64,000 nt of DNA, taken from an uncultured Phycisphaerales bacterium. GTDB taxonomy: Bacteria > Planctomycetota > Phycisphaerae > Tepidisphaerales > Tepidisphaeraceae. The DNA is taken from assembly GCA_963758525.1 (NCBI GenBank), contig CAVWVQ010000003.1, positions 576,001-640,000 of the forward strand. Reading direction: 5' to 3'. The position numbers and the translations under genes were made by a program. Each line of letters starts with the position of its first letter. The stretch's first letter is position 1. This document shows positions 17,077 to 51,175 of this stretch, piece by piece. The notes below the pieces were generated by a model that was not told where the DNA came from, searched no databases, and worked only from the letters and a program-made list of their open reading frames with translations.

Positions 17077-17219
17077 GGGTGTAACTTTTATTTGTGGCGA
17101 TTGCAGATTTTGCGATCGTAGGGCGGGATTCATCCCGCCGTTTTCTCAGCCGGCCAACAAATCGGCGGGATGAATCCCGCCCTACTCGGAGCCGATCGCC
17201 ACTTTCGAGCGCCACACCG
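17077..17219 (+). mobile_element. 143-bp MITE copy 1 carrying a REP doublet; 8-bp TSD TATCGTCC
   Basis: Reverse-complement match to 51033-51175 (identical except the terminal base); direct repeats at 17069-17076 and 17220-17227. Confidence 0.9.
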
Positions 17220-33842: not shown

Positions 33843-34361
33843 TCATTGGTCCGCCGGCCGGTATAGGTGAAAAACTGCTTCGGGGACGGGCAGCACTTCG
33901 AGCGACTGCGCCGCGCCGGGCCGGGTGTCGTCCGCCATGAAGACACACCAACGCTGCCCGTCGTGAGCAGGAGTCGGGTCAAAAACAATTATTCTTTTCC
34001 TGCGGCCCTCAAGGACCAGGCCCGCGGGAGCATATCCATACGGTTTACCGGACGCAGGGCAGCTCAATTGCAGCGGCTCGCCCGCGTCCGCGAACGCCTT
34101 GACGTCGTCCAATTTGTCGGGAAGCCGCTTATTGAGAGCAAAGTATTGCAATAGCGCGCCGCTGATGTCATGCAGCCGCATGGCGCACGGATCAGTGGCG
34201 ACCGCCTCATCCGGAGTGAGCCGCCCGGATGGGTGACCCGACGGCTGCGCCGGGTCGGCATGCATGGTCGCCACGCCCACTTTCGTGGTCTGCGTTTCGC
34301 ACCCGCATAACGCGAGCGCTGCCGCCAGCACAAAGCATCCGCCATGGTTCCATCGACGCAT
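33843..34361 (-). CDS. Hypothetical lipoprotein downstream of the secretin
   Basis: LALCGC lipobox; CAMRLHDISGALLQY..LPDKL..CPASGKPYGY resembles a pseudopilin-like globular domain. Confidence 0.65.
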   Translation of the reverse strand: MRRWNHGGCFVLAAALALCGCETQTTKVGVATMHADPAQPSGHPSGRLTPDEAVATDPCAMRLHDISGALLQYFALNKRLPDKLDDVKAFADAGEPLQLSCPASGKPYGYAPAGLVLEGRRKRIIVFDPTPAHDGQRWCVFMADDTRPGAAQSLEVLPVPEAVFHLYRPADQ

Positions 34362-34370
34362 TCCGGGTCC

Positions 34371-36956
34371 TCAATGATTGTCCCCAGGCAGCGGGGGCTC
34401 GGGCAGCCGGCTCCCGGGCGGCGGCGCGGCTGGTGCTTCGGGGGGTTTGGGCTCGGTCGGCGGGGGGACTTGCGTCGGCTGTGTCGTCAGCCCGCCGCGG
34501 TCCATCCCGCGCATCTGTTCCTGAAACGCGCCCGGCTCAACCGCGTTCGGCGTTACCTTCATTCCCTTCATCTCATCCTGCGACATCGGCTTGAGCATGC
34601 TCGCCTGCGCCGCGACGTGCGGAGTCAGGAAGATCAGCAACTCCGTTTTGGTCTTGTCTGTCTGATTGCGCTGGAAGAGTAATCCCAACCCGGGAATATC
34701 TCCCAGAATCGGCACCTTGCTGAGCGTCTGCGTCTTCTGGTCCTGCATCAAACCGCCGATGACGATCGTGTCGCCGTCGTGAATTCCCACGCGACTCTGT
34801 GCCGAGCGATTATCGAAGATCGGCGCGTTGACGTTGCTGGAAATCGGGACGGTGGAATCGGAAATAGCGGAAATTTGCGGCGCCACGTCCATGATCACCA
34901 GGCCGTCGGGATTAATGTGCGGAGTCACGTTCAAAATGATTCCTATCGACTGATAGGAGATGTTGTTGATGATATTTCCAGTATCTGTCGTCTGGGAGTT
35001 GGTGATGATAGGCACCTCCTGCCCGACGAGGATGGACGCCTGCTGATTGTCGCTGGCGAGAATGTACGGGCGCGACAAAACGTCCACCTTCCCCACGGTG
35101 GCGAGCGCGCGGATGGTGGCAGTCAAGTTATCTTCCATGAGGCTGACGATCAGGCCGCCCGCGCCGGTGCTCTTGGCGGCGGTGGCAGCAAGCGCGTTGC
35201 CGAAGATCGTTCCGCCCGATTGCCCGTTGCCGCTCTTGCGGAGATTCAGGATCGAGAAATCGATGCCGGTATCCTCGGCGTTATCATGAGTGACTTCGGC
35301 GATGAGGACCTTGATCAGCACCTGCGGCACCGGCCGGTCGAGTTCCTTGAGAATGTCGCGAACCTGCTTGTCGAATTTGGAACTGGTGGCAACGAGCAGG
35401 GAATTGGTGTCGGTGTCCGCAACGACGTAAACCTGGCCCTTCAACTCGGAAATCGCCGAGACAGGGCCGTTGGTTTGGCTGCTGAAAATTCCCCCGCCTC
35501 CACCGCCGCCGAATGTTCCGCCGCGATTGGAACTGCCGGTGTTGGTGCCGCTGGACCCGAATGAGCCAAGGCCGCTTCCGCCGGCGCTGGAGCCGAATCC
35601 GCCCGAAGAGCCTCCGCCACGTGAGCCGCCGAACGCGGAATTGCTGCTGCTGCTTCCGAACGTGGAACCGGTGCCGAAAGCGTTGTTGGTCGAGTTGTTG
35701 TTGCTCGACGTCGCGCCGGTGCTGCCGTTGCCGAACAGATTGTTCAACGTCGCCTGAATGTCGGCTGCCTGTCCGTTGCGGACCGGGTAAATGAAGAAAT
35801 CCTGGTCGGCCGCGGGATTTGCATCGAGCTGGTCGAGCATCTGATCGATGACTTTCAAGGTATCGGTCGGGCCGGTGACGACGATCGTGTTCGTGCGCGT
35901 GTCGGCTGACGCGGTCACCTTCCCGGTCTGTCCCTTCTCCGATCCTTGCGAATCGCCTCCGCCCGGGCCGCCTCCCCCGCCTGGCCCGCCGCCCCCTCGC
36001 ATGGCGCGGAAAAACGCGCCGGGACCGCCGGCAAAGGGATTGGCGTTCGCCGCGTTGCCGCTGGATGAATCGGTCTTGAAGATATCTGTCACGAGCTTCG
36101 CCGCCGCTGTTGCGTCGGCATATTTCAGTTGCCGCACCTTGATCGTGTTCTCGAGAGTGTCCCGTTTATCGAGATTCGAGACGATCTGAACGATCCGGCG
36201 GATGTTCGCCTTCGTGTCGGTCATGATCAGGGAATTGCTCGACGCATTGCTCGTCAGATCGGCGTTAACGGGAATCAGCGGCTGCAGATCGGTCTTCAGC
36301 TTCACCGCATCGACATTGCGCAGGGGGATCACCTGCGTGACCAGCTCATCGGTGGGCTCGATCTGGTCGGGGTCGGCTCCGAAATTCACCGGAATCCCGC
36401 CCTTGCGGGCAATTTCCACGGAGGTGATCTTGAGAATCCGCCCCATCTGGATCACGGTCAGATCATTGGCCATCAGCACCGTGTTCAGCAGCGTCACAGC
36501 TTCGGCCGGCGTCACCGGTTGCGTGCTGCGCACCGTCACGCGCCCCGGGATCGGCTTGGAGTCGGGCTTGAGAATGACAAATCCCGCTTCGTCAGAAAGG
36601 CGTTCGAGCACGGTGTCGATCGGGGCGTCCTGGAAGTTCAGGCTGATCTGCGTGGTCGGGCCCGACGAAGGCGCAGATCCCGGCGGTCTGGTAACCAGGA
36701 CCGGGCCCGCGTCCCTGGACGGCGGCGCGATGGGCGGCTGTGGCGCATCCTGCGCATGCAGCGCGATCGGGGCCAGCGCCAAAGCGACCGCGGAGCTGAG
36801 ACGAATCGTATCTCGCCGTGCTGACGCGATGCGCGACAGTGCGCGTCTGTACAGGCAAAGCTCGTGCGGGTGGAGCGCACCGCGTCGGGCGGCCGCTAAA
36901 AGTGCGGGAGTGGATGGGACAGCGCGTATCCGCGCGGGGTCATTAAGCATATTCAT
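34371..36956 (-). CDS. gspD: Type II secretion secretin
   Basis: LNFQDAPI, TQVIPLRNVDA, DTRTNTIVV, LDRPVPQVLIKVLIAEV, ILVGQEVP, IVIGGL, KVPILGDIPGLGLLF, ELLIFLTP; ATGA overlap with the upstream gene. Confidence 0.92.
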   Translation of the reverse strand: MNMLNDPARIRAVPSTPALLAAARRGALHPHELCLYRRALSRIASARRDTIRLSSAVALALAPIALHAQDAPQPPIAPPSRDAGPVLVTRPPGSAPSSGPTTQISLNFQDAPIDTVLERLSDEAGFVILKPDSKPIPGRVTVRSTQPVTPAEAVTLLNTVLMANDLTVIQMGRILKITSVEIARKGGIPVNFGADPDQIEPTDELVTQVIPLRNVDAVKLKTDLQPLIPVNADLTSNASSNSLIMTDTKANIRRIVQIVSNLDKRDTLENTIKVRQLKYADATAAAKLVTDIFKTDSSSGNAANANPFAGGPGAFFRAMRGGGGPGGGGGPGGGDSQGSEKGQTGKVTASADTRTNTIVVTGPTDTLKVIDQMLDQLDANPAADQDFFIYPVRNGQAADIQATLNNLFGNGSTGATSSNNNSTNNAFGTGSTFGSSSSNSAFGGSRGGGSSGGFGSSAGGSGLGSFGSSGTNTGSSNRGGTFGGGGGGGIFSSQTNGPVSAISELKGQVYVVADTDTNSLLVATSSKFDKQVRDILKELDRPVPQVLIKVLIAEVTHDNAEDTGIDFSILNLRKSGNGQSGGTIFGNALAATAAKSTGAGGLIVSLMEDNLTATIRALATVGKVDVLSRPYILASDNQQASILVGQEVPIITNSQTTDTGNIINNISYQSIGIILNVTPHINPDGLVIMDVAPQISAISDSTVPISSNVNAPIFDNRSAQSRVGIHDGDTIVIGGLMQDQKTQTLSKVPILGDIPGLGLLFQRNQTDKTKTELLIFLTPHVAAQASMLKPMSQDEMKGMKVTPNAVEPGAFQEQMRGMDRGGLTTQPTQVPPPTEPKPPEAPAAPPPGSRLPEPPLPGDNH

Positions 36957-38153
36957 TTCCCTTGCAGTTCTGCCTGGCGTCTGCGTCGCAGACGTTCGAG
37001 GACGTCGTTGCCGCCGCCCGTTGCCGATCCACCCGCGGGTGGTGTCGAAGCGCCCCGGCTGGCGTCGTGCCCGCCGACGGCGCCGTTGTTGATCCCGTCG
37101 ATCCCGTTGATGCCGTCTCATCCGAAGACGGGGGCGCGGCGGCTTCGCCGCGCAGGTTTTGTCCCACCAGCACGCGCACGGTCTTTCCGTCGACCGCGTA
37201 ATCGAGCGTGTCGAGCGTGATGGCCGCGACTTTCCCGCGCACGATTGCGTCGCCGTCCTGAAGAATCAGCACTTTCGACGCATTGCGATCTTCGACAAAT
37301 GCCAGAAAGCGATCGCCCGTCTGCGTCGCTCCATCAAATACCAGCGATTCCTCGGCCGAGGCCGATTTTGCCGGTGCCGACGGCGCGGTGGCGCCAGGCG
37401 GGGCCGCGGGAGTCGGCACTCGGACTCTGTCGACCACCCGCGTCACATGGCTTCCCTTCTGAAAGATGCTTCGCTCGGCCAGGATGGAGAACTCCTGCGG
37501 AAGGATGCGCGGAACGGTGATGTAACGCGAGCCATTCAAATCCGCGCTAACAGCCGCTGGCGCGGTCGTCGGCGCCGGCAAACTCGTCGGCCCCGTTGTC
37601 GCGAGTGGCAAAGTCGTTGGTCCCGTTGTGGCGATGGGCAAACTCGTCGGTCCGGTTGTCGCGAGTGGCAAAGTCGTCGGCGCGGTTGCCGCGACGGGCA
37701 AACTCGTCGGTCCCGTTGCGGCGACTGGCAAGCTCGTCGGTCCGGTTGTCGCGACCGGCGCAGTGGCCGGCTGCGTGAACGGAGCCGTCGCGGGGACGGC
37801 CAACACGTCGACGGGCGCCGTGGCGGCCGCCTGCGTTGCGGGGCGCTTGCCGCTCCTTGAGATGCCGGCTGCGTCGCCTGCTCGGTCGCCGGTTGCGTGG
37901 CAGCAGTCTCAGCGCCGAGCGTTCCTGAAACGTTCAGCGCGCCAACGATGAACAACGCCAACGCGTGCCTGATGAACGTCGTCGAAAGGCGAATCACTCC
38001 TGCTTGCAACGAGCGCGCTCTGGTCCCCTCTCCCGGTACGCCGGGAGAGGGATAGGGTGAGGGTGATTTCGAGAACCAACGGCGCTCGAGGTTCCAAATC
38101 ACCCTCACCCCAACCCTCTCCCGAAGTACTAAATGAACGTTCCATTGCCTCAC
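36953..38153 (-). CDS. GspC-position exported protein with Pro/Thr repeats (frameshifts near 37840 and 37050)
   Basis: GTG overlaps the gspM-like stop; signal-like segment; ERSIF motif; corrected C-terminus NDVLERLRRRRQAELQGK*. Confidence 0.65.
37577..37756 (-). repeat. Six 30-nt coding tandem repeats (PVAATGPTSL-like)
   Basis: GGCAA-starting 30-nt units repeated six times in phase. Confidence 0.9.
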
Positions 38154-38710
38154 GAGCGTGCCGCCTTTCCGGCGGTCTTGTCGGGCGCCAGCAGGCAAAT
38201 CGTGGAGAAGCTGAGGTGAATTTTCAGATCGTCAGTCCCTTCCCGAAGCGGAAGAATCTGCACCTCGGTGACATGCAGCGGAATCGACCCCGACTCCATC
38301 AGATAGACCAGTTGCGAAATCTGGCGCATCGATCCGTTGCCATCCACCGAAAAACCGGTCACCTGGAAGCTGCCCTCGGTGGTGGGCCGCTCGGTCTTGA
38401 GGCTGATGTTGGTTACGCCCGCCTGGCCTGCCATCTTGTAGGCGGCATTCTCCGCCTGGCTCTCGGCCAGCGACGCGTCGGACTGCAGCCCCGCGCCGAG
38501 CATCGCCTTCCAGACCTTCTGCAGCCTCGCCTGCTTATCAAACACCAGTTGCGCGTCGTTCCTTTGCTGATCCACGTCCTGCTGTCCCTTTTTGAGAGCA
38601 TCCCAACTGTCCAGCAGCGGAGACAGAATGACGAAATACAGCAGGAGGCTGCCGACTGTCGCGCCGGCGCCGATGGCAAGATTTCGTTCACGTTTGGAGA
38701 GAGACATCAT
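38150..38710 (-). CDS. GspM/PilO-like T2SS protein
   Basis: LSKRERNL plus TM helix, coiled coil, ferredoxin-like C-terminus; position after the GspL-like gene. Confidence 0.75.
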   Translation of the reverse strand: MMSLSKRERNLAIGAGATVGSLLLYFVILSPLLDSWDALKKGQQDVDQQRNDAQLVFDKQARLQKVWKAMLGAGLQSDASLAESQAENAAYKMAGQAGVTNISLKTERPTTEGSFQVTGFSVDGNGSMRQISQLVYLMESGSIPLHVTEVQILPLREGTDDLKIHLSFSTICLLAPDKTAGKAARS

Positions 38711-38727
38711 GAAAACTCCGCCATTGC

Positions 38728-40202
38728 CTAACGGGTCGCCGCCGGCTGTTTGAAGTTGAACGTGATCGAGAACGACACTTCGCGCAGGCGATCGGCGTTG
38801 CTGGTGCTCAGCAGTTTGACGTCCGTGAAACCCGGGGTGGCATGCAGGCGCGATTGCAATTTGCTCCAGCCATTGGGGTCCGACGCTTTTCCATTGATCT
38901 GGCCGAACAGGTCGCCTGACGGCGGAGGCTTTTCGCCACTGACCGTCGCGCCGGCGGCGGCGCCGACCCGCGCACTCTCCCGCAGTACTACATTCGTCGC
39001 GTAGGTCTGATCGTCGTCCGCCAGCGCCACCGTGAGCCCGCGAAGACACGTCAGATAGCGCGGATCGCGCTTCTGCCAGCCCGTCGCAAACGACACCCGC
39101 GCGACAAAGGCGTTGGCCGAGTCGAGGCTCGGCTTCATTCCGTCAACTTCACGCCTTGCCGTGGCAAGAGCCGTCTGTTGCTGACCGAGGGAAATATAGG
39201 AGTAGATGCACAGACCGAGGAGCAGCACGCCCAGGGCGATTGCCAGGATAGTCCATCGCGGCATGCGCTTTCGTCGCGGGGCGCACGGCGCGAATGGATA
39301 AAATCCACTGCCGGGCGGGATGAACCCAGCGCGCACATCGCCAGCGCCACCGCCGGGGCAAATCGACTCGCGGTGCCGTTGAGGGTCGGGACGGCGACGT
39401 CCACTCCCAACGACGAGAGTTCTCCGCCCCGGACCACCATGCCCAGTTGCCCTCCCAGGGCGGCGGCGTCCAAACCTGTCTGATCCCACAGAACGATCGC
39501 GCGGTCTTCGGAGGATGCCGGCAACGTCGATACCGCCCGCCGGACGGCACTGACGAACGGGGCCGGTTGCTCGGGCCCGCGCAGATAGCGAACGGCGCTC
39601 GGCGCACCGTTGCGCTGCGCCGTGAGTTCCGCTCCGCCCGCGCTGACGGCAAGAACGAGCGCGCCGGAGCCGGCAGACTTTCCCGTCGCCTCCGCCAGCA
39701 CCAGCGCAGAGGAAGTGATTGCGATCGGCGAGAGCTTTGCCGTTGCGCACGCGGCTTCCACCGTCTCGATGTATTTTCCCGGCGTCGCCACCAGCAGCAC
39801 CGACTTGCCTGCGACCGATTCCTGCGAGACGACAAAGTCGTACGCCAGGTCCTTCAGTTCGGACGAGAATTCCGCCTCGGCTCCGGTTCGGAGCAGATCG
39901 GCCAGCGTGGCATCGTCGGTCTGGGGAACTTCCTTCTGTTTGACGACGATCCACTTGGCCGGCAATCCAACCACCGTCGTCCGCGCGCCAAATCCATGTT
40001 CCTTGCGAAACTCCGCCAGCGCCGCGCCGAACTGCGCCGTGTCGGCCGGCGTCACGCCCGCGGGATACTGCAACTCGGCGACGCGCTGCACGATCGGCCG
40101 ATCGCCCATCGTCACTTCCGCGGCCATCAGCGAACGCTCGCCAATCGCAAGGCCCAACACCGTCTTGTAACGCACACTTTTCACGCGGCTCCAATTTTCC
40201 AT
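38728..40202 (-). CDS. GspL/PilM-PilN-like T2SS protein (frameshift near 39280)
   Basis: Actin-like N-terminus (LGLAIGERSL..VVGLPAKW), then a TM helix and PilN-like domain in the next frame. Confidence 0.75.
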
Positions 40203-40204
40203 GA

Positions 40205-41704
40205 TCACTGCGGCAACCCGTTCACCTGACTGTTGCCCGGCGTCGCAAACAAGCCGGTCACCACGCCGTGCCCGGCGCACATCGAATCCTGAATTTCCGG
40301 CGGAAGCGGCCAGCCATACGAAGTGAGATCACGGCGATATTTGATCGTTGCCGGCAGCTTCTGGGCATCCACCACAATCCGCACGCGCTTAAATGCCCGC
40401 CCGTCTCCGCTCACCGCGACGATGTCCGCGGAATAGACATAGGAACGCAGCGTGATCGCGCTGAGAATCCCGTTCGCCTTGGAGGCGGAGAGCGCGCTGA
40501 ACACCCAGCCGATTCCCGGGTTGGTGCTGGCCGTCGATTGCGATGCGATCAGGGTGTCGGCGTCCGATTCGGTCAGCCCTGGAAGACACTCGAGCACTTC
40601 CTTGGGGGCGGTGTTGACGTTAACGAGTCCTGGCAGTGTCTTGGCCGTGGTCGTCGTCAGATAATCGTACACTTTCGCGAACTCATCGGTCGTCAGCCCC
40701 GCCTGAACGTAAAACGATCCCAGGCTGGCGAACGTGTTGCCCGGCTTGGCTCGCAGCAGCGGAGTAATCCGCTTGATGATCTGCGTCGCCCGCGCCGCGG
40801 AGAGTTGCTTGGTCAGCACATTTTTCAGCGCGCCGGTGGTGGCGGCATTGACGTTGGCGCGAGCCGTTCCATCGCTGGCGGTGTTCGGCTCCGAGGAATA
40901 GCAGGTCAACCAGTTGAATATGCCGCGGCTGTTGCCGTTGGCGTTTTCAAACGCCGTCACATTGCCGGCATTGGCCAATTCGTTCTGATCGACCACGCCA
41001 TCCCGATTGACGTCGTAGCCGAAAAGCAGGCTGCTGTCCCACCCGTTCACGAGCATCAATTCCTCAACGGTCTCAAACGACGCGTTTTTCGCGTCGTATG
41101 GCTCAGCGAGCTGCTCGTAAAATTCGCTTTCGGCGCCGTTCGGCTGCGGGGTGCTGTCGGCGTCCCTCCAATCGATGATCGAATCGGCCGCGGTCGGCGT
41201 CATCCCCGGAAGATCCTGCAGCTTTGCCGACGAGGCAACGTTGATATTCAGCTTGCTCGACTCATCGACGATCCCTGCCATGTACGCCTGGTCCGTCGTC
41301 GGGTTGGGATGCAGCAGCCAGAAGTAGCCGTCACCCACCTGCAACGCTTCGGCTGGAATCTGCGTGATCGTCAGCGCGTCGTTCTGGTACGTCCCCACCT
41401 GTGCCAGCACCCATTGTTCCGCCCCCTGCTCGACCGCATCCGCCTTGGCAGCAGAAAGACGATTGGCCGACGCCAGCGATTCCGTCCGCATGTTGCGGGC
41501 AAAGACCAGCACCATGCTCGTGAGCACCACGGTGACGCCAAGCGCCAGCACGTAGATCGTACCGTGACGCGGGCGTCGTCCAAGCCGTCCCTCGTAGGGT
41601 CCGCTGGAGGGCGCGCAGTTGGATAGTTCTGATGAGAATCGTCGTCGCCCTGCTGCGGACCGTTCGGTGATCGAGGGATGGTCCGGATCTCGTGTGGTGT
41701 TCAT
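40205..41704 (-). CDS. gspK: Minor pseudopilin GspK
   Basis: G-TIYVLAL prepilin site, DESSKLNIN, IIDWRD, FETVEELMLV, VNVNTAP..LPG. Confidence 0.88.
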   Translation of the reverse strand: MNTTRDPDHPSITERSAAGRRRFSSELSNCAPSSGPYEGRLGRRPRHGTIYVLALGVTVVLTSMVLVFARNMRTESLASANRLSAAKADAVEQGAEQWVLAQVGTYQNDALTITQIPAEALQVGDGYFWLLHPNPTTDQAYMAGIVDESSKLNINVASSAKLQDLPGMTPTAADSIIDWRDADSTPQPNGAESEFYEQLAEPYDAKNASFETVEELMLVNGWDSSLLFGYDVNRDGVVDQNELANAGNVTAFENANGNSRGIFNWLTCYSSEPNTASDGTARANVNAATTGALKNVLTKQLSAARATQIIKRITPLLRAKPGNTFASLGSFYVQAGLTTDEFAKVYDYLTTTTAKTLPGLVNVNTAPKEVLECLPGLTESDADTLIASQSTASTNPGIGWVFSALSASKANGILSAITLRSYVYSADIVAVSGDGRAFKRVRIVVDAQKLPATIKYRRDLTSYGWPLPPEIQDSMCAGHGVVTGLFATPGNSQVNGLPQ

Positions 41705-42405
41705 TGCGGCGTGCTCCCGTTCACATTGGAATCCTGCGCCGCCGTTGAGCATGCGAGGGGGAACACCCGCACAACCGAAACAGGCTGATTCTGCGAACTC
41801 GCATCCGCGCCTTGCCGCTGCAACTGCAATGTCACCTCGACGGCCGCGGGGATCGTGTTGTCCTCCTGCGTCGAATCCCACGTAGTGACCCAATCGGAGC
41901 CGGTGTAATAGCGCAGGCTGAAGCCCAACACATTGCGGCACACCGTCTCCTCGTCAGGCGTGACTCCCTGCTCCGAGAGAAGATTACCCGAAACCCGCCG
42001 CACGAGATCCTGCTGGCCGTTCTGGCGGGATTCGACGGTCAACTCCACTTCCTTGATCTCGCCGTTGCCGTCGGGGTGATCGGGAGCGTACGTGTTCGTG
42101 TAGAAGACCAGATCGGCGGCGGGATTTCCGCGGCCGTCAGTGTTGGAGGTTCCTTCAAACGTTCCCGCCAGCACGCTGGCGCTGCCCGGCTGCATGGTGT
42201 TTGATAGATCGTTGCCAAGCAGATCCATCGCCAGCGCCGCCGTCCGCGATGCCTCCAGGCTGTTGGTGGCCGCGCTCTGCGCCTTGAAGGCGGCGCGCAA
42301 GCTCTGGTAAAGGACGCCGGAGAGAACGGCGGCCATCGCCATCGCCACCAGCAGCTCCACCACCGTGAAGCCGGGTCGCGCCGAATTGTGCGTGCTCCTG
42401 TTCAT
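41701..42405 (-). CDS. gspJ: Minor pseudopilin GspJ
   Basis: GFTVVELLVA; W..TWDS..IPAAVEVTL C-terminal pattern. Confidence 0.85.
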   Translation of the reverse strand: MNRSTHNSARPGFTVVELLVAMAMAAVLSGVLYQSLRAAFKAQSAATNSLEASRTAALAMDLLGNDLSNTMQPGSASVLAGTFEGTSNTDGRGNPAADLVFYTNTYAPDHPDGNGEIKEVELTVESRQNGQQDLVRRVSGNLLSEQGVTPDEETVCRNVLGFSLRYYTGSDWVTTWDSTQEDNTIPAAVEVTLQLQRQGADASSQNQPVSVVRVFPLACSTAAQDSNVNGSTPQ

Positions 42406-43214
42406 TGAGTTGCGGTGGTGGATGTCTGATTAGGGTAAATGACGGTTGAGAGCGCGATCGATTCCTGCCGGTTGCGATCGAGCCAGCTGACGCGAAGATC
42501 GAGCTGCTGCAAACCCGCGCCGGTGGTATCAGCGGCCCACGGCTGCACGGTTGCCTGCCACTGATACTGCGGCCAATCCGGGCTGAAATCGCCAGAGAGA
42601 CTCCCGCTTTGCCATTCCCCGGTCGCGACCAGCTCCGAGAGCTTTCCCTGGGCCAGCGAGGTGGCTTCGTTGCGATGGCGCGCCGCGGTCGCGGAACGGG
42701 TCGCGACCGCGACACCCTCCATGATCGAAGGGAGGACAATCGCAATCAGCAGCGTTGCCGCCAGGACTTCGACGAGAGTAAAGCCGCCGCGCATTCGCCG
42801 GCGCGGTTTCCACCCCAACCCGTCCTCCGAGCATGTAGGAGGCAAGCAAGAAAGGCTCCCCCCTGGCACGGGCATCTTGCCCGTGTTGGGGGCGTGGTGC
42901 TGAAGAGAATCTGCGATATCAAATCTTGCTTTCGTTCCAAGTCGCCCGCACGGGCTGGAAGCCCGTGCCACGGGAACACTTCCCCCAAAAACAAGCCGCC
43001 CAGCACGCAGGGCGGGATTCATCCCGCCGATTGACTCGGCAACCGCAGAACGCGGCGGGATAAATCCCGCCCTACAAGCGCTGCCGCACGTGGTAAAAGT
43101 GCGGGCAAGGCTGCGCTTGCAACCTTTGTGGTGGACGCTTCCCCGTGGCACGGGCATCTTGCCCGTGCTGGGTGCGCTCGATTGAAGAGCAGCTCGGACA
43201 TCAATTCGATTCAT
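42402..43214 (-). CDS. gspI: Minor pseudopilin GspI with a REP-derived 140-aa N-terminal extension (alternative start 42794)
   Basis: GFTLVEVLAA preceded by an open frame from an ATG overlapping the gspH stop; the extension contains five REP-type palindromes. Confidence 0.8.
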   Translation of the reverse strand: MNRIDVRAALQSSAPSTGKMPVPRGSVHHKGCKRSLARTFTTCGSACRAGFIPPRSAVAESIGGMNPALRAGRLVFGGSVPVARASSPCGRLGTKARFDIADSLQHHAPNTGKMPVPGGSLSCLPPTCSEDGLGWKPRRRMRGGFTLVEVLAATLLIAIVLPSIMEGVAVATRSATAARHRNEATSLAQGKLSELVATGEWQSGSLSGDFSPDWPQYQWQATVQPWAADTTGAGLQQLDLRVSWLDRNRQESIALSTVIYPNQTSTTATQ

Positions 43215-43708
43215 TTCGACACCTCCGCCGTCGGGACGATGTGAAACGCTTCCGCCGATGCTTCGCAGGCGACTTCCACCGTGCGGTCATAGCTGTCGGT
43301 GAGCCAGATCTTCGCCGGCTCGGTTCGGCCGCTGGATTGGAACTCGACGTACTGGCCGTCGGTGCGCTGAACAATGTCGGTGGTCATCTGCGACCCGCTG
43401 GCGATGGGAAACTGCTCGCCGTAGTCGTTGGAAAGCTCAGTGAAAATGCCGGCGCTGCCCGATGTCAGCCAGACCAGCTTCTTTGCCGGATCGACATTGA
43501 GGCGATACGTGCGTCCCTGCGATACGGCCTGCGTCCGCGCGTACCCGGCGAGGCTGAGGATCAGCGTCGCCGAGTCGTTGTTGGCGCGGCCCGCCTGGAA
43601 AGCGATCAGCGACGGCGCAACCAGAGCCGCGCCGATGGCCATGATGACCATCACGAAGATCAGTTCGATCAGCGTAAAACCGCGAGATTGAGTGATGGGT
43701 CCGCGCAC
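43211..43708 (-). CDS. gspH: Minor pseudopilin GspH/FimT
   Basis: GFTLIELIFV, YARTQAV, VEFQSSG. Confidence 0.85.
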   Translation of the reverse strand: MRGPITQSRGFTLIELIFVMVIMAIGAALVAPSLIAFQAGRANNDSATLILSLAGYARTQAVSQGRTYRLNVDPAKKLVWLTSGSAGIFTELSNDYGEQFPIASGSQMTTDIVQRTDGQYVEFQSSGRTEPAKIWLTDSYDRTVEVACEASAEAFHIVPTAEVSK

Positions 43709-43713
43709 GAGTG

Positions 43714-44211
43714 TTATTTGATGTCGTCGTCGCCGCCCTCATGGCCGTCGGGACCGCAGGAAAACAGATCGAAATCGGCTCCGTTGCTCCCCGGGCAGCG
43801 ATAGACGTAGGGGTTGCCCCACGGATCCTTCAGCGAATTGTCATCGATGTAAGCGTGCTTCCAGTTGGGCAGATTCCCCGGATTGCTCTGCAGCGCGGCG
43901 AGATTCTCTTCGGTGGTCGGCAGTCGCTCGTTGTCGATCTCGAATTGGCTGAGGGAGCTCTTGAGCGTCGAGATCGTCGCCTTGGCGGCGGCAATTTTCG
44001 CCTGCTGGGTTCGGCCGACCACTTTCATCGCAACCACCGACGTCAGGATCGCCAGAATCACGAGCACCAGCAACAGCTCGATGAGCGTAAAGCCGGAGCG
44101 CTCTGGCCGGCGATGTCGCGCACTTGCTCGGTGCTGCAGGCGCACCAGTCCGCCACGACTGGCCGCAAGTGGCACCAACCTGCGTTCTGCGGTTGCGTTC
44201 GTACTTTCCAT
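43714..44211 (-). CDS. gspG: Major pseudopilin GspG
   Basis: GFTLIELLLV, LPTTEENLAAL, DPWGNPYVY..PG, SCGPDG..DDDI. Confidence 0.93.
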   Translation of the reverse strand: MESTNATAERRLVPLAASRGGLVRLQHRASARHRRPERSGFTLIELLLVLVILAILTSVVAMKVVGRTQQAKIAAAKATISTLKSSLSQFEIDNERLPTTEENLAALQSNPGNLPNWKHAYIDDNSLKDPWGNPYVYRCPGSNGADFDLFSCGPDGHEGGDDDIK

Positions 44212-44243
44212 GTTGAATATCCTTTCTAAGAGAACATCTGGCT

Positions 44244-45485
44244 TTAGTGAATGACGTCGCCGAGGTTGAGCACCGGCAGCAGCACTCCGATCACGATCGT
44301 TCCGATCAGCCCGGCCATGATGAACAGCATCATTGGCTCGGCGATTGCGACGAGCATGCGAAGCTGCCGATCGAGGTCGGACTCATATGAAGTGGCCATC
44401 CGCAGCAGCTCCTTGTCGAGCCGACCGGTTTCCTCGGCTACCGCCACCATCTCTACCACTGACGGCGGAAAGAGTTTCGGGCTCTCCGCCAAACTCTTGG
44501 ACAGCGCCTGGCCGCGCTGGACTTCCTCAATGGCCCGCGAGACGGTGTCGGCAAGGGTCTGATTTCCAATCGCCTGGCGGGCGACGCGCAAGGAAGCCAC
44601 CAGCGGCACGCCCGCTCCCACCAGCGTTCCGAGCATCCGCGCAAACCGCACCAGCGCAAAGTGCGCGATCACTTGTCCCAGCAGGGGCGTGGAAAGCAGC
44701 GCCATCTCGATTCGCCGTCTTCCGGTCTCAGTTGATTTGGCATATCGGAGGGCAAAAAACAGCAGGATCGCCGCGCCCAGCACCCAAAATCCATAGTTCC
44801 TGATCACGTTGCTGGCCGCGACGATGAACTGCGTGAGCGCCGGCAGATTTGAGCCGAACTGAGCGAAGATCTCCTTGAATCTCGGAATGAAAAACGTCAG
44901 GAGAAAGATCACGACGCCGGTGGCGACGATGCCGAGAATCAGCGGGTAAATCATCGCCGCCTTGACCTTGCCCTTGAGGTCGGCCTCGCGGGTGCGGAAA
45001 TCGGCAATCTGCCCCAGAACGGTGTCGAGAAATCCCCCGGCTTCGCCCGCCTGCACCATCGCGACGTAGACGCTGGAGAACGACTTGGGCCATTTTGCCA
45101 GCGCCTCGTTGAGCGGCATGCCTCCGACCACGTCTTCATGCACGTCGCTCCACAACTGCTTGGAGGCTGGCGTCGACGCTTCGCGGCGCAGCAGCGCCAG
45201 CGCCCGGCTCAGCGGAATGCCCGCGGCTAGAAGGTTGGCAAGCTCGCGCGTGAACGACTCGATTGCCCGCTGCGAAACGCGCCCGCGTTGCGGACCGGCA
45301 GACGCCGCCCGCAATGCCGCCGCCTTCTTCGCCGCCAATTCCCCGTCGCGGGCTTCGTCGATGCTGATCGCGTGAAGCCCCTGCTTGCCAATTTGCGCAA
45401 CCGCCGCGGCGCACGAGTCGGCTGTCAGCGTACCGGCGCTGCGCCGTCCGTCCTTCGCCAGAGCTACATATGCGTAAACTGACAT
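44244..45485 (-). CDS. gspF: T2SS inner-membrane platform protein GspF
   Basis: FTRELANLLAAGIPL, MVQAGEAGG, AMIYP, AEETGRL, EPMML. Confidence 0.93.
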   Translation of the reverse strand: MSVYAYVALAKDGRRSAGTLTADSCAAAVAQIGKQGLHAISIDEARDGELAAKKAAALRAASAGPQRGRVSQRAIESFTRELANLLAAGIPLSRALALLRREASTPASKQLWSDVHEDVVGGMPLNEALAKWPKSFSSVYVAMVQAGEAGGFLDTVLGQIADFRTREADLKGKVKAAMIYPLILGIVATGVVIFLLTFFIPRFKEIFAQFGSNLPALTQFIVAASNVIRNYGFWVLGAAILLFFALRYAKSTETGRRRIEMALLSTPLLGQVIAHFALVRFARMLGTLVGAGVPLVASLRVARQAIGNQTLADTVSRAIEEVQRGQALSKSLAESPKLFPPSVVEMVAVAEETGRLDKELLRMATSYESDLDRQLRMLVAIAEPMMLFIMAGLIGTIVIGVLLPVLNLGDVIH

Positions 45486-45631
45486 ACGTTTTCACTGCCT
45501 CGATACACGTTCAATGCGCCACGGGCGACTTGCGAAACGCGCCGCTGGACGCGCTCCGCTGCGCGTCGCGGCTAACCGGGGTCCTGAACCCTGCCCGAAA
45601 AGGACTTCGATCCGAATCGTCGCGATAGTGT

Positions 45632-47369
45632 TCATTTTGCGCCCGCAAGCTCTTCGGCGCCGACCACCGCATTCTCGTCCTTGGTCATCCGCAGCACTTC
45701 TTCCGGTGTCGTTCGCCCTTCGCGGATCAATCGCCAGCCGTCTTCACGCAGGCTGTGCATTTCCTGCTGAATCGCCATCTTCCGGATCTCGCGCGAGCTG
45801 GATCGCTCCAAAATCAGCGAGCGAATTTCATCCGTGATCGGCATCATTTCAAAAACGCCCTGACGGCCGCGATAGCCGGTGCCCTGGCAACTGCGGCAGC
45901 CTGCGCCGCGATACAGCACCTCCGGCACCTCGTCGCCGAACTGCGCCCGCAGCTTCTCCACTTCATCGCGCGGCGCTTCCTTCCTGCAATGTTTGCAAAT
46001 CAGCCGCACCAACCGCTGCGCCACCACCGCTTCCAGCGATGACGCCACCAGATACGGCTCGACTCCCATGTCGATCAGCCGTGTCGTTGCGCCCGGCGCG
46101 TCGTTGGTGTGGAGCGTGCTGAAAACGAGGTGGCCCGTGAGTGACGCCTGCACCGCGATCTCCGCCGTTTCCTTGTCGCGGATTTCGCCGATCAGCACAA
46201 CGTCCGGATCGTGACGCAAAATGGATCGCAAACCCGCCCCGAAGCTCAGCCCGGATTTGGTATTCACCTGAATCTGATTGATCCCGCTCATCTGGTATTC
46301 AACCGGATCTTCGATCGTGATGATCTTCAGATCTGCGTTGTTGATCTTCGACAGCGCGGCATACAGCGTTGTCGTCTTGCCCGAGCCGGTCGGCCCGGTG
46401 ACCAGGATGATTCCATGCGGCAGATCCAGAACGCGGTCCCACGCGTTGCGATCCCGCGACGCCATCCCCAGATGTTCCAAACCGAGCAGCGCGTCGCCGC
46501 GATCGAGAATGCGCAGCACCACCGCTTCACCGTGAATCATTGGAATCACGCTCACGCGCAGGTCGATCTCGCGCCCCGCCACTTTCAAGCGAATGCGCCC
46601 GTCCTGCGGCAGCCGTTTCTCAGCGATGTCGAGATGGCTGAGAATCTTCAGGCGCGAGACGATCGCCGCATGGTACTTGCGGACCTGCGGCGGAATGTTC
46701 GCTTCGACCAACACGCCGTCGATTCGATACCGCACGCGCAACTGATGCTCGAACGGCTCGACGTGCACGTCGGTCGCCCGCGACTCGAGCGCCTCGGCCA
46801 TCACCTGATTCACGAACTTGACGATCGACGCATCCTGGGCGGCGCTGGACAGATCGAGGTCGTCCTCGTTCTGCTCTTCCAGCACTTTGACGCCGTCATC
46901 CTCCTCGTTCATCCCCATCGACTGCAGCGTGTCGGCTCCGACGCCCAGGTACTTCTTGATGTACTGATCGATCTCATTCGACGGCGCGATGGCCGGATGC
47001 ACATCCAGCCCCGTGGCGACGCGAAGCTCGTCGAGTCCCGATGTGTCGAAAATCCGCGACGTGAGGACAGTGACGCCGTCCCCATTTTGCGAAAGCGGCA
47101 TCAGCCGGCGTTCCAGCAGGATGCTGGCGGGAAATTTCGCCAGAAACTCCTTGGGCGGGGCGAGGCGCTCCCCGTCCTTTTCCAGATCGACGTAGGGAAC
47201 ATCAAAATGCACCGACAGGAACCGGAGGATCTTTTCCTCATTGGCCCCGGCCGCGCCGCGCAGGCGCATCATCCAGCGTTTTGCCAGTGGCGTGTGCGCT
47301 GCGCACCTGCTCGGCGCCCTCCGCGCTGAGCAGCCCTTCTTCGATCAATCGTGAAACGATGTCTTCCAT
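45632..47369 (-). CDS. gspE: T2SS ATPase GspE (frameshift near 47270)
   Basis: RATDVHVEP, LDIAEKRLPQDG, GPTGSGKTT, IEDPVE, LRHDPD, TGHLVFSTLH and CxxC pairs; N-terminus MEDIVSRLIEEG in another frame. Confidence 0.93.
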
Positions 47370-47434
47370 GAATGGTGTCAGTCTTTGGTTTTTCGGTTTT
47401 CAGCGTCAGTTCTTGGTTCAGTCGTCAGTCATTC

Positions 47435-47546
47435 GAGCAATTTTCGGTTGAGGCGGCATTGTGGTGCAGGCTTCCAGCCTGCCTCTGAGGAACAAGCTGG
47501 AAACCCGCACCACAATGGCCGCCCCACCTCAATCTGAAAACTGTTC
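47435..47546. mobile_element. Second MITE-like element with imperfect TIRs enclosing a GTGG-REP doublet
   Basis: Ends GAGCAATTTTCGG / CTGAAAACTGTTC; internal TGTGGTGCAGGCTTCCAGC..GCTGGAAACCCGCACCACA; partial relative at 60179-60254. Confidence 0.55.
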
Positions 47547-47597
47547 CAAATTCGCCAACTGAAAACTGCACACTGCAAACCGAAACCCACCGCCGGG

Positions 47598-48185
47598 TTA
47601 ATTCAACATTCCCGTCATCACCAGCAGGGCTTCCTGCCGTTGCGTGAGGACGCTTTCCAGATCCTTCTGTGCCGCGGTCAGATCTTCCTTGGCCTTGGCC
47701 TTGGCGTCGCGGAAGGCATCGAGCTTCGCCTTGATTTCGTCGGGCTTGGCATCCTTGTTATCAAGCGTGCTCTGGAGATCCGCCGAGGCCTTTTGCACAG
47801 CCGATTGCTCAGCGCCGCCCGCGGGAGCAGCCGGCGGGGTTCCACCCGCGCCGCCATTTGCGCCGCCGCGGTTGCGCCGGCCGCCCTGGCCGCCGCCGCC
47901 AAACATGGCGCGCATTCCGCCGCCGTTGGCGTCGCGCTGCAACTGCATCACTTTTTCGAGCTTCGGCTGGATCGCCGCGAATTCATCGTCTGAGGCTCCG
48001 AGCCGTTCCTTGAGCGTGTCAAGCATCCGCTGGCGAAACTGCGAAGGATCGAAGTTGCGCCGTCCGCCATTATCCCCGGGAGCCGGCTGCGTCGCCGGAG
48101 CCGGATTATTTTGCGCCAGCACCGGCATCGCCAGTGCTCCGCTCATCATCATTGCCGCCAATAGTCCGATCTTCTTTCCCGTCAT
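47598..48185 (-). CDS. Secreted helical protein (Spy/CpxP-like, planctomycete type)
   Basis: AGGAG RBS, signal peptide, Gly-rich loop, C-terminal VLTQRQEALL. Confidence 0.7.
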   Translation of the reverse strand: MTGKKIGLLAAMMMSGALAMPVLAQNNPAPATQPAPGDNGGRRNFDPSQFRQRMLDTLKERLGASDDEFAAIQPKLEKVMQLQRDANGGGMRAMFGGGGQGGRRNRGGANGGAGGTPPAAPAGGAEQSAVQKASADLQSTLDNKDAKPDEIKAKLDAFRDAKAKAKEDLTAAQKDLESVLTQRQEALLVMTGMLN

Positions 48186-48222
48186 TGCAATTCTCCTTTC
48201 AAGAGAGTTTGAGTTCCCCGGG

Positions 48223-48730
48223 TCATCCGGGCTGTGTTGCCGGATGTGTGTCAGGTGATGCGCCCGGCCGATGCGGCCCGTGGCGTGCATGCATTTCTTT
48301 TGTCAGCTCGTCCCATTTGCTTTGCTGCGACGCGTCCAACAGCGCACGACTGCGGCTCTCGGCATCATGAATCAGCGCTTCCCGCTGTTTGTCAGCGTCG
48401 GCGCGCTGCGCGATAAACAGTCATGATCTTCTCAAACTCCGCCCGCTGCTGATCGCTCAGCAGGGCCTGAATTTCCGCGTCGCGCTGCTTGTCGATCTGA
48501 TGGCGGCGCTCACCCGCCTGTTCAATCTTTTGCCGCGTCTCCGCCCAGACCGCGTCCATTTGCTGCTTCTGCTGCGCGCTGAGATTCAACTGATCGGCGA
48601 TCCACGACGGGCCCCCGCCACGCGCTGGCGCGGTTGCCGCCGGGACGCGAGTCGTCAGCCGGCCGACCACCACGCCGGCGCAGAGCACCAGTGCGGTGGT
48701 TGTTAAAAAAGCGAATTGTCGCCGCGACAT
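48223..48730 (-). CDS. Membrane-anchored Spy/CpxP-like (LTxxQ) protein (frameshift near 48405)
   Basis: TM helix; LNLSAQQK and LLSDQQR motifs; continuation LLDASQQSKW..PATQPG* in another frame. Confidence 0.7.
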
Positions 48731-50125: not shown

Positions 50126-50455
50126 GTGCGAGATCACAAATTGATCGACGAGAGAAGCCTGGCGATGGCGCGCGCCATCGCCCAGCGGCTGCGGTCCGAC
50201 CCGGGACTGGTGGAACTGGCACGCGCCAACATCGAACGATGGACCAAGTCATGTTCACCTCGCGGGAGAGCCGCTTTGCGGGAATGGCTCGCCGTCCTGG
50301 ATGGCCCGATCGACGGCGTGATTGCGCTGCTGTGCGGCGAAGACGAACGGGCCGTGCGCCTTCGGCAGTCCAACCCATTTGCCGGAGCGTTGACACAAAA
50401 AGTAAGGAACGAAATTCTTCTGAGATTCGAGGCTCGTGACAAGGCAGCAACTTGA
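50126..50455 (+). CDS. Small helical protein, putative partner/antitoxin of the downstream nucleotidyltransferase
   Basis: DERSLAMARAIA..ARANIERW..LRQSNPFAG; 20-nt overlap with the next gene. Confidence 0.7.
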   Translation: MRDHKLIDERSLAMARAIAQRLRSDPGLVELARANIERWTKSCSPRGRAALREWLAVLDGPIDGVIALLCGEDERAVRLRQSNPFAGALTQKVRNEILLRFEARDKAAT

Positions 50456-50990
50456 GCACATCATCCGGGCCGCCGCAGGCACCGCTGACGTCCGCGACAT
50501 TGTTGTGATCGGCAGTCAGGCCATTCTCGGGGCTTTCCCCGACGCTCCGGCCGAGCTGACCGAATCGATGGAGGCAGACGTTTTTCCCAGAGATGCGCCG
50601 GAACGGTCCATCGTCATCGATGGGGCCATCGGCGAAGAGTCGCTGTTTCACCAAACTTTTGGCTATTACGCGCACGGCGTTGACGAATCCACGGCAATCC
50701 TGCCCGACGGATGGCACGACCGCCTCGTCAAGGTCGAGAATGGCGCGACAGTGGGCGCAGTGGGATGGTGTCTTGAAGTCCACGACCTGGCTGCGAGTAA
50801 GCTCGCGGCCGGCAGGGAGAAAGACCTGCACTTCGTTCGAACGATGATTCAAACGAATCTCGCTTCTCCCCAAACTTTACAGCGCAGGCTTCATTGCACC
50901 CCGCGCTTGTCCCCAGAACTTCTGGCGCTTGCTTTGGCGCGCCTCAGCCACGCTTCAAAGGTTACTTCGACTCTGCCGCCATCTCCCTGA
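50436..50990 (+). CDS. DUF6036-like Pol-beta superfamily nucleotidyltransferase
   Basis: LEHIIRAA..VVIGSQAILG..SMEADV, DLAASKLAAGREKD. Confidence 0.75.
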   Translation: MTRQQLEHIIRAAAGTADVRDIVVIGSQAILGAFPDAPAELTESMEADVFPRDAPERSIVIDGAIGEESLFHQTFGYYAHGVDESTAILPDGWHDRLVKVENGATVGAVGWCLEVHDLAASKLAAGREKDLHFVRTMIQTNLASPQTLQRRLHCTPRLSPELLALALARLSHASKVTSTLPPSP

Positions 50991-51032
50991 AAGCGTAAAG
51001 GAAAGCCAACGGATTGCCATCCGTTGGGCATT

Positions 51033-51175
51033 GGGTGTGGCGCTCGAAAGTGGCGATCGGCTCCGAGTAGGGCGGGATTCATCCCGCCGATTTGTTGGCC
51101 GGCTGAGAAAACGGCGGGATGAATCCCGCCCTACGATCGCAAAATCTGCAATCGCCACAAATAAAAGTTACACCC
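51033..51175 (-). mobile_element. 143-bp MITE copy 2; 8-bp TSD TGGGCATT
   Basis: Direct repeats at 51025-51032 and 51176-51183; reverse complement of 17077-17219. Confidence 0.9.

Follow-up and report, generated by a model that had tools for sequence, protein, structure and literature searches.

In-frame palindromic repeats in the predicted leaders of stop-start-coupled type II secretion genes of an uncultured Phycisphaerales bacterium

GTAG/CGTC repetitive extragenic palindromes (REPs) are short palindromes, occurring as singles, dimers or clusters, which are mostly intergenic but in some cases lie within open reading frames (ORFs), N-termini included (Di Nocera et al. 2013, PMC3733652). They are linked to Y1 transposases and have been reported in Planctomycetes and Opitutus (PMC3733652). 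In the part of that paper covered by our search, N-terminal REPs are treated as probably misannotated, the term 'signal peptide' has no match, and the table gives two periplasmic proteins and a GspE with N-terminal REPs and no pilin. Rickettsia palindromic elements (RPEs), as summarized in PMC10969869 and PMC2229807, are mobile palindromic DNA of about 150 bp that is fused in frame to genes, is roughly neutral and is described as remaining in the protein product. In Yersinia, the YPAL/RU-2 miniature inverted-repeat transposable element (MITE) makes up part of the predicted signal peptide of YPO1552 (PMC2229807). Here we describe a type II secretion operon within a 64,000-nt stretch (the window) on contig C3 of a 6.47-Mb genome (61% GC) of an uncultured Phycisphaerales bacterium, in which palindromic and short tandem repeats occupy in-frame positions after a conserved stop-start overlap and ahead of the site at which the encoded protein is predicted to be cleaved. 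These repeats are very probably tolerated insertions filtered for an open frame, in leaders that are likely removed.

Repeats between overlap starts and predicted cleavage sites

In this minus-strand operon gspI, gspK, the gene at the gspC position and gspD each start on the upstream stop codon (ATGA or GTGA) and are stop-free up to the predicted cleavage site. Reading through repeats from such a start, as the initial annotation had described for several genes, holds for gspI, gspK and the C-position gene, the latter two with repeat families different from those of gspI. The leaders, their repeats and the gspE-gspF gap that serves for comparison are as follows.

42783..43214, minus strand: predicted GspI prepilin leader, 144 aa to the cleavage site between G and F; the longest of 317 coupled leaders measured
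43142..43167: REP 1 of the gspI leader, family 18
43047..43075: REP 2 of the gspI leader, family 0
43007..43035: REP 3 of the gspI leader, family 0, inverted partner of REP 2
42948..42974: REP 4 of the gspI leader, families 5/18
42860..42885: REP 5 of the gspI leader, family 18
42792..42794, minus strand: internal ATG of gspI, four codons before the cleavage site; possible alternative start; not ATG in the close relatives L137 and L134
41593..41664: decayed repeat element in the gspK leader, its 3′ arm common to L132/L137
37911..38153, minus strand: predicted Sec signal region of the C-position protein, 81 aa; GTGA overlap start at 38153
37971..38147, minus strand: stretch of 177 nt (59 codons) without counterpart in L132, containing CCCTCTCCC-type repeats
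36753..36956, minus strand: predicted Sec signal region of GspD, 68 aa; ATGA overlap start
36860..36900: weak repeat arm in the gspD leader, low-copy
45492..45635, minus strand: 47-aa ORF that starts on the gspE stop and ends 6 nt before the gspF ATG; outside GspF; negative control, probably incidental
45546..45577: REP in the gspE-gspF gap, family 3; the gap has 160 genomic matches at E<0.01

The ATG of gspI at 43214 overlaps the gspH stop (ATGA), and the 420 nt down to 42795 contain no in-frame stop, against two and three stops in the other frames. This extension with its five REPs, as first annotated, gives 504 genomic BLAST matches at E<0.01 and folds with a z of -7.6. Two of its units belong to family 0, which also takes part, with families 6 and 8, in the larger elements at 17082-17219 and 51002-51170. 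Since 2.5% of shuffled sequences also stay open, a lone open frame of 140 codons is modest evidence, and the case therefore rests on comparison.

The CCCTCTCCC-type repeats of the C-position leader (38021-38129) have 265 genomic matches at E<0.01 and a folding z of -7.1. The element said to be decayed in gspK, which starts at 41704 (ATGA), was recovered with 6 matches at E<0.01 and a z of -2.8. For gspD, whose overlap frame was taken from L132 because the gene upstream has a frame break, the overlap start stood; the arm is weak, being of low copy number (4 matches at E<0.01) and not unusual in its folding (z +0.7). The nested palindrome claimed for gspG had to be given up: it finds no match at E<0.01, much as the coding controls do (0 and 1 matches), and its folding is poorer than that of most shuffled sequences (z +1.2). 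The long forms of GspI and GspK are single-member clusters in the protein cluster collection, which reflects only the choice of the gene caller. A search of 34000-48500 against Rfam gave no match.

The repeats are REP-like in dispersal and arrangement, with families 0, 3, 4, 5, 9 and 18 dispersed in about 100-460 profile matches each, and with inverted pairs (I1, I2, I3 and I15) supported by folds. A candidate repeat, by profile match, lies deep inside the gene in 169 of 3,805 called genes. Noncoding DNA just upstream of gspE holds an inverted REP pair of family 19 (47446-47528).

Comparison with L132, the closest relative (about 77% GspK identity), provides an empty site for the C-position leader: there the GTGA overlap runs directly into a short signal, with the 177 nt missing. 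L132 has repeat leaders of its own, 308 nt in gspD and 206 nt in gspJ, where this genome has 32 nt, and the gspI leaders of L137 and L134 carry a repeat family other than the one found here. The mature proteins are 65-92% identical to those of the closest relatives. These filled and empty sites look like repeated separate insertions.

Reading frame in relatives and across the genome

For comparison, 20 regions from relatives, 159 loci from further searches and the window were pooled; junctions that lacked a gene or a prepilin motif, or that exactly repeated a sequence counted before, were excluded. A small number of rows are mis-anchored, with negative gaps. An overlap start followed by an open frame was found at 93 of 116 gspH-gspI, 104 of 121 gspI-gspJ, 126 of 138 gspJ-gspK and 90 of 100 gspM-gspC junctions, and the overlap starts are conserved at the three pseudopilin junctions. 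The coupled leaders are 5-144 residues long, with medians of 14-19 aa, and 56 of 317 have at least 40 aa. The cultured relative L069, titled Fontivita pretiosa B-254, has coupled leaders of about 34-39 aa with no match to the repeat library.

Among the gspH-gspI, gspI-gspJ and gspJ-gspK gaps of at least 120 nt, the frame of the downstream gene is open in 55 of 61, against 12 and 19 for the other two frames. The overlap motif is present at the upstream stop in 50 of these gaps, 49 of which are in frame and 47 open. Of the junctions that bear a library repeat, 41 of 44 are open, against none of 12 in front of gspF, which encodes a protein without an expected cleaved leader; since the repeat library derives from this genome, families private to relatives are missed in these counts. 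None of the 27 gspE-gspF gaps of at least 60 nt is coupled, yet 28 short junctions at the same place are. The suggestion that cleavable leaders are a safe haven in which coupling is preserved stands up to the sequence tests proposed for it. With one locus taken per 65%-identity GspJ cluster, 35 of 38 junctions are open, against 1 of 11 at gspE-gspF, gspK-gspL and gspL-gspM (Fisher p 4e-7, which is overstated because kin are not independent). Prepilin genes without coupling lean the same way, gspF-gspG and gspG-gspH gaps of at least 120 nt being open in 29 of 43 cases, against 9 and 12 in the other frames.

Of 39 repeat leaders, 38 keep a basic residue among their final 8 aa. Selection on the leader peptides themselves was considered and rejected: in 50 leaders, hydrophobicity (p 0.24) and charge (p 0.15) do not differ from those of the off-frames. 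No leader peptide contains a 15-residue window above a mean hydropathy of 1.6. Both results fit neutral filler.

The 47-aa ORF before gspF does bear a repeat, is in frame and ends 6 nt before the ATG, as annotated, but its in-frame status looks like chance, because it is the only in-frame case among 13 comparable gspE-gspF gaps. A role as a ribosome relay to gspF was tried and rejected: 3 of 13 overlap ORFs in this gap end at most 6 nt from the gspF ATG, and genome-wide the figure is 11 of 173 against 8 and 7 in control frames (p 0.24).

The genome-wide test used a de novo repeat library of 110 profiles, from which 23 palindromic and 25 short-tandem families were kept by eye and those resembling insertion sequences, CRISPRs or coding DNA were dropped; genes were called with our own caller and export signals assigned by our own hydrophobicity rule. 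The repeat load is very high (1,932 clusters); 7-nt tandem families are numerous, and two profiles (16 and 45) are CRISPR-like by eye. Repeats were found at 622 of 2,074 same-strand junctions, of which 237 have an overlap motif and 22 are read through. Such read-through occurs in 15 of 57 predicted leader-bearing genes, versus 7 of 180 others (odds ratio 8.8), in line with the enrichment before export signals for which a genome-wide test had been proposed. The counts become 15/76 versus 7/161 with a looser hydrophobicity cut-off, and 35/169 versus 51/777 when the coupling requirement is dropped. With the overlap motif in frame, the export-signal class is open in 14 of 27 versus 20 of 91 cases (p 0.007), and the no-signal class shows no rise (7 of 66 versus 42 of 398).

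Pfam searches with 13 of the 22 read-through cases returned ZnuA, LolA, LptE, NMT1, two BamB-like proteins, M48, GDSL and a prenyltransferase fold, with four having no family. The ZnuA query found no match in 5 genomes, and the LolA matches were too distant for placing the upstream gene. In L237 and L238, of the same genus, about 190 membrane-protein-like codons stand in frame ahead of the LptE-like gene, as either a fusion or an extended N-terminus.

Explanations for the in-frame repeats

From these patterns we infer translation from the overlap, cleavage of the leader, and selection acting as a filter. Repeats would multiply and land near gene junctions genome-wide, moved probably by Y1 transposases and possibly by DUF559 nucleases. 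As overlap-coupled genes have no intergenic space, DNA landing just past the upstream stop enters the leader of the next gene, and the repeats are seen at this position. An insertion would be kept only if it preserves the frame, is stop-free and leaves the basic residues and the cleavage motif in place, as the frame statistics suggest; what it encodes appears irrelevant. Prepilin peptidase (for GspI, GspJ and GspK) or signal peptidase (for GspD, the C-position protein and other exported proteins) would then, judging from these protein families, strip the junk, so that the mature protein is unchanged. An intact gene for an A24 prepilin peptidase is encoded in the genome. That the leader is translated from the overlap start and afterwards probably removed is the likely reason for the survival of the repeats, and the insertions are probably neutral. 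In front of genes lacking a cleaved leader, gspF among them, repeats are seen only where the gene has a downstream start of its own.

With regard to the movers, there are 23 Y1_Tnp matches, one of which is flanked on both sides by family 5, present in the gspI leader, and 15 of which have no library repeat nearby. Two DUF559 nuclease genes (G000:C3:1103306-1103629 and G000:C3:1210856-1211138) are flanked on both sides by the CCCTCTCCC/CCCTCACCC families 4 and 9, the commonest families in the leaders of relatives, and DUF559 genes are possibly the movers of these families; our literature search found no description of DUF559 genes flanked by such repeats. Of the two, the second is a split copy with a prepilin gene on either side. 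Its position falls within a second, minus-strand pilin cluster (G000:C3:1201184-1213300), which follows genes called PilB/PilT/PilC-like on sequence resemblance only and in which several prepilin genes have repeat DNA at their front or between them. In one of these genes the ATG lies 2 nt past the upstream stop and is followed by about 65 codons of tandem-repeat leader.

Several observations weigh against reading the repeats as translated, cleaved leader DNA. Of the 61 long junctions, 6 are closed, which shows that certain lineages have shifted to a start of their own, and 11 have no overlap start. The sole repeat-bearing junction among the 100 scored for gspM-gspC is closed; that of this genome is absent from the score because of its frame break. 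The internal ATG of gspI at 42794 would yield a leader of 4 residues, and an internal start codon with anti-Shine-Dalgarno (anti-SD) pairing of -4 or lower is present in 18 of 50 long leaders, although this test discriminates poorly, with 8 of 27 true gspF starts passing it. Genome-wide, 7 of the 22 read-through cases were classed as having no export signal, the classifier being our own hydrophobicity rule. Outside the operon, the upstream gene was matched at 9 of 20 ortholog loci (five cases) and coupling was visible at only 4, two of which bear long leaders of their own. Finally, apparent frame breaks occur at 39279 in gspL, at about 37830 and 37040 in the C-position gene and at about 47275 at the 5′ end of gspE, of which only the one in gspL is placed to a single base.

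The strongest of the rival explanations, itself improbable, is that the repeats are extragenic, that translation starts at downstream codons and that the open frames are a by-product of GC-rich, stop-poor palindromes. Taken by themselves, repeat clusters are indeed frequently open in every frame (about 60% of the no-signal class), own starts have been adopted by some relatives, gspI offers the ATG at 42794, and most N-terminal REPs may be misannotated starts in the view of Di Nocera et al. (2013; PMC3733652, searched in part). Extragenic repeats cannot, however, yield the excess of 55 open frames over 12 and 19, nor 49 of 50 in frame, and all 12 repeat-bearing gaps before gspF are closed. Furthermore, 23 of the 50 long coupled leaders have no internal ATG, as is the case for gspK here, and in 31 of 50 the final 30 codons offer no ATG, GTG or TTG downstream of the last repeat detected. 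Pairing with a generic anti-SD sequence is -9.4 at 43214 versus a weak -3.9 at 42794 (three rows, the gspK overlap and two C-position internal starts, were left out of the anti-SD scoring), and gspI may make mixed use of the two starts.

Slightly less probable still is that the hairpins are selected regulators of subunit ratios, acting through ribosome slowing or protection of upstream mRNA. The hairpins of gspI and the C-position gene are very stable, REPs have been proposed to act on transcripts (PMC3733652, in the part searched), and one arm of the gspK element is shared with L132, whose GspK is about 77% identical. Against this, all three leaders are free of repeats at 61 of 109 loci, and all three carry one at only 2; even the closest relatives differ in repeat family, junction and length; and gspG, the gene of the major pseudopilin, has no repeat. 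The tuning of stoichiometry by hairpins, put forward in the initial annotation, is therefore unsupported, as most operons lack these repeats.

A decaying or misassembled operon, with gene-breaking insertions left open by chance, is highly improbable: the breaks in gspL and the C-position gene relative to L132 and the apparent one at the 5′ end of gspE would fit it, but breaks also occur outside the operon (4 in 17,818 aligned codons) and are therefore likely sequencing error, the mature proteins are conserved as given above, and the pattern recurs across many independent assemblies. One locus in the query set behind the count outside the operon came from the genome G004; none of the listed breaks and none of the junction counts depends on it.

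If the repeats are translated and removed as proposed, then N-termini encoded by repeats are probably genuine wherever a gene with a cleaved leader is locked to a stop-start overlap, contrary to the usual view of miscalled starts. Prepilin peptidase is predicted to be indifferent to the length and content of the leader up to at least 144 residues, several times the leader lengths known for prepilins. The proposal also accounts for the way in which repeat-rich genomes absorb insertions within tightly packed operons, and the conserved operon provides dozens of separate insertions together with a built-in negative control, gspF. A much wider claim is doubtful, though less so than the rivals above: that overlap-coupled genes offer mobile palindromes a lineage-wide reservoir in their cleaved leaders in Tepidisphaerales, other Planctomycetota and some Verrucomicrobiota, that prepilin peptidase routinely strips as many as 144 junk residues, and that the hairpins are a fast, mutable strain-level dial on the dose of minor pseudopilins and exported proteins.

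Operon context and comparison with described systems

The operon has the order E-F-G-H-I-J-K-L-M-(C)-D, and synteny was found in 20 of 20 relative regions fetched, some of which end at contig edges. It unites the ATPase E, the platform proteins F, L and M, the pseudopilins G to K and the secretin D. Pfam matches to T2SSE, T2SSF, T2SSG, GspH, T2SSJ, T2SSK, T2SSM, Secretin and gspD_N0 support E, F, G, H, J, K, M and D; L is named by position only, and the Pfam score of GspI comes from the N-methyl motif only. N_methyl was matched in G, H, I and J, with cleavage predicted between G and F or G and T. The C-position protein has no Pfam match, so the name gspC is positional; in relatives the gene opens with a signal-peptide-like N-terminus. 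Within it, 37552-37770 consists of five to seven tandem copies of a 30-nt unit, which together encode a Thr/Pro/Ala linker of low complexity and are less regular in L132.

44244..45485, minus strand: gspF, T2SSF; own ATG; no cleaved leader expected
43714..44211, minus strand: gspG; own ATG; 40-aa leader (44211-44092) with no detectable repeat
43211..43708, minus strand: gspH; a GGAGG-type ribosome-binding motif and the ATGA overlap with gspI lie at its 3′ end
42402..43214, minus strand: gspI; 270 aa counted from the overlap start
41701..42405, minus strand: gspJ; overlap start; ordinary 12-aa leader
40205..41704, minus strand: gspK; overlap start; 48-aa leader (41704-41561) with zero internal ATG
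38728..40199, minus strand: gspL-like gene; compared with L132, its frame is broken once near 39279, likely through an assembly error
38150..38710, minus strand: gspM, T2SSM
34371..36956, minus strand: gspD secretin, by Pfam

The nearest GspK relatives are in records titled Tepidisphaeraceae, Tepidisphaerales or Phycisphaerae. This operon type is also borne by L112, L117, L121 and L124, records titled Bifidobacterium sp. that stand alongside Verrucomicrobiota records, and these titles may be wrong; L121 has an open gspJ leader of 308 nt. Elsewhere in the window, 50134-50990 contains two adjacent short ORFs (about 50455-49898 region; 50990-50436), which may be similar to a nucleotidyltransferase-type toxin-antitoxin pair.

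In-frame palindromes in genes are already known (PMC3733652, PMC10969869 and PMC2229807, as far as these were covered); of a systematic niche for them in the cleaved leaders of coupled genes our literature search found no description, most subscription papers lying outside it. Different from the N-terminal GTAG/CGTC REPs, the repeats described here have conserved overlap starts and frame statistics that argue for their translation, specifically in cleaved leaders. They resemble RPEs in being inserted in frame into protein genes, as the 177-nt empty site and the frame statistics indicate; unlike RPEs, the units are 20-45 bp, belong to many families, encode peptides that vary with frame and family, and lie before a predicted cleavage site. 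The likeness to YPAL/RU-2 is that of a mobile repeat within a predicted signal peptide, but YPAL/RU-2 contributes to the signal of what is a putative new gene, whereas here the pre-existing signals of conserved operon genes are extended at their front by the repeats. As in the long signal peptides of autotransporters (PMC2805444, seen in part), the cleaved N-terminal regions are longer than usual.

Known prepilin leaders have about 5-30 residues. In contrast, 56 of the 317 coupled leaders here reach at least 40 aa, and up to 144, and they are not conserved.

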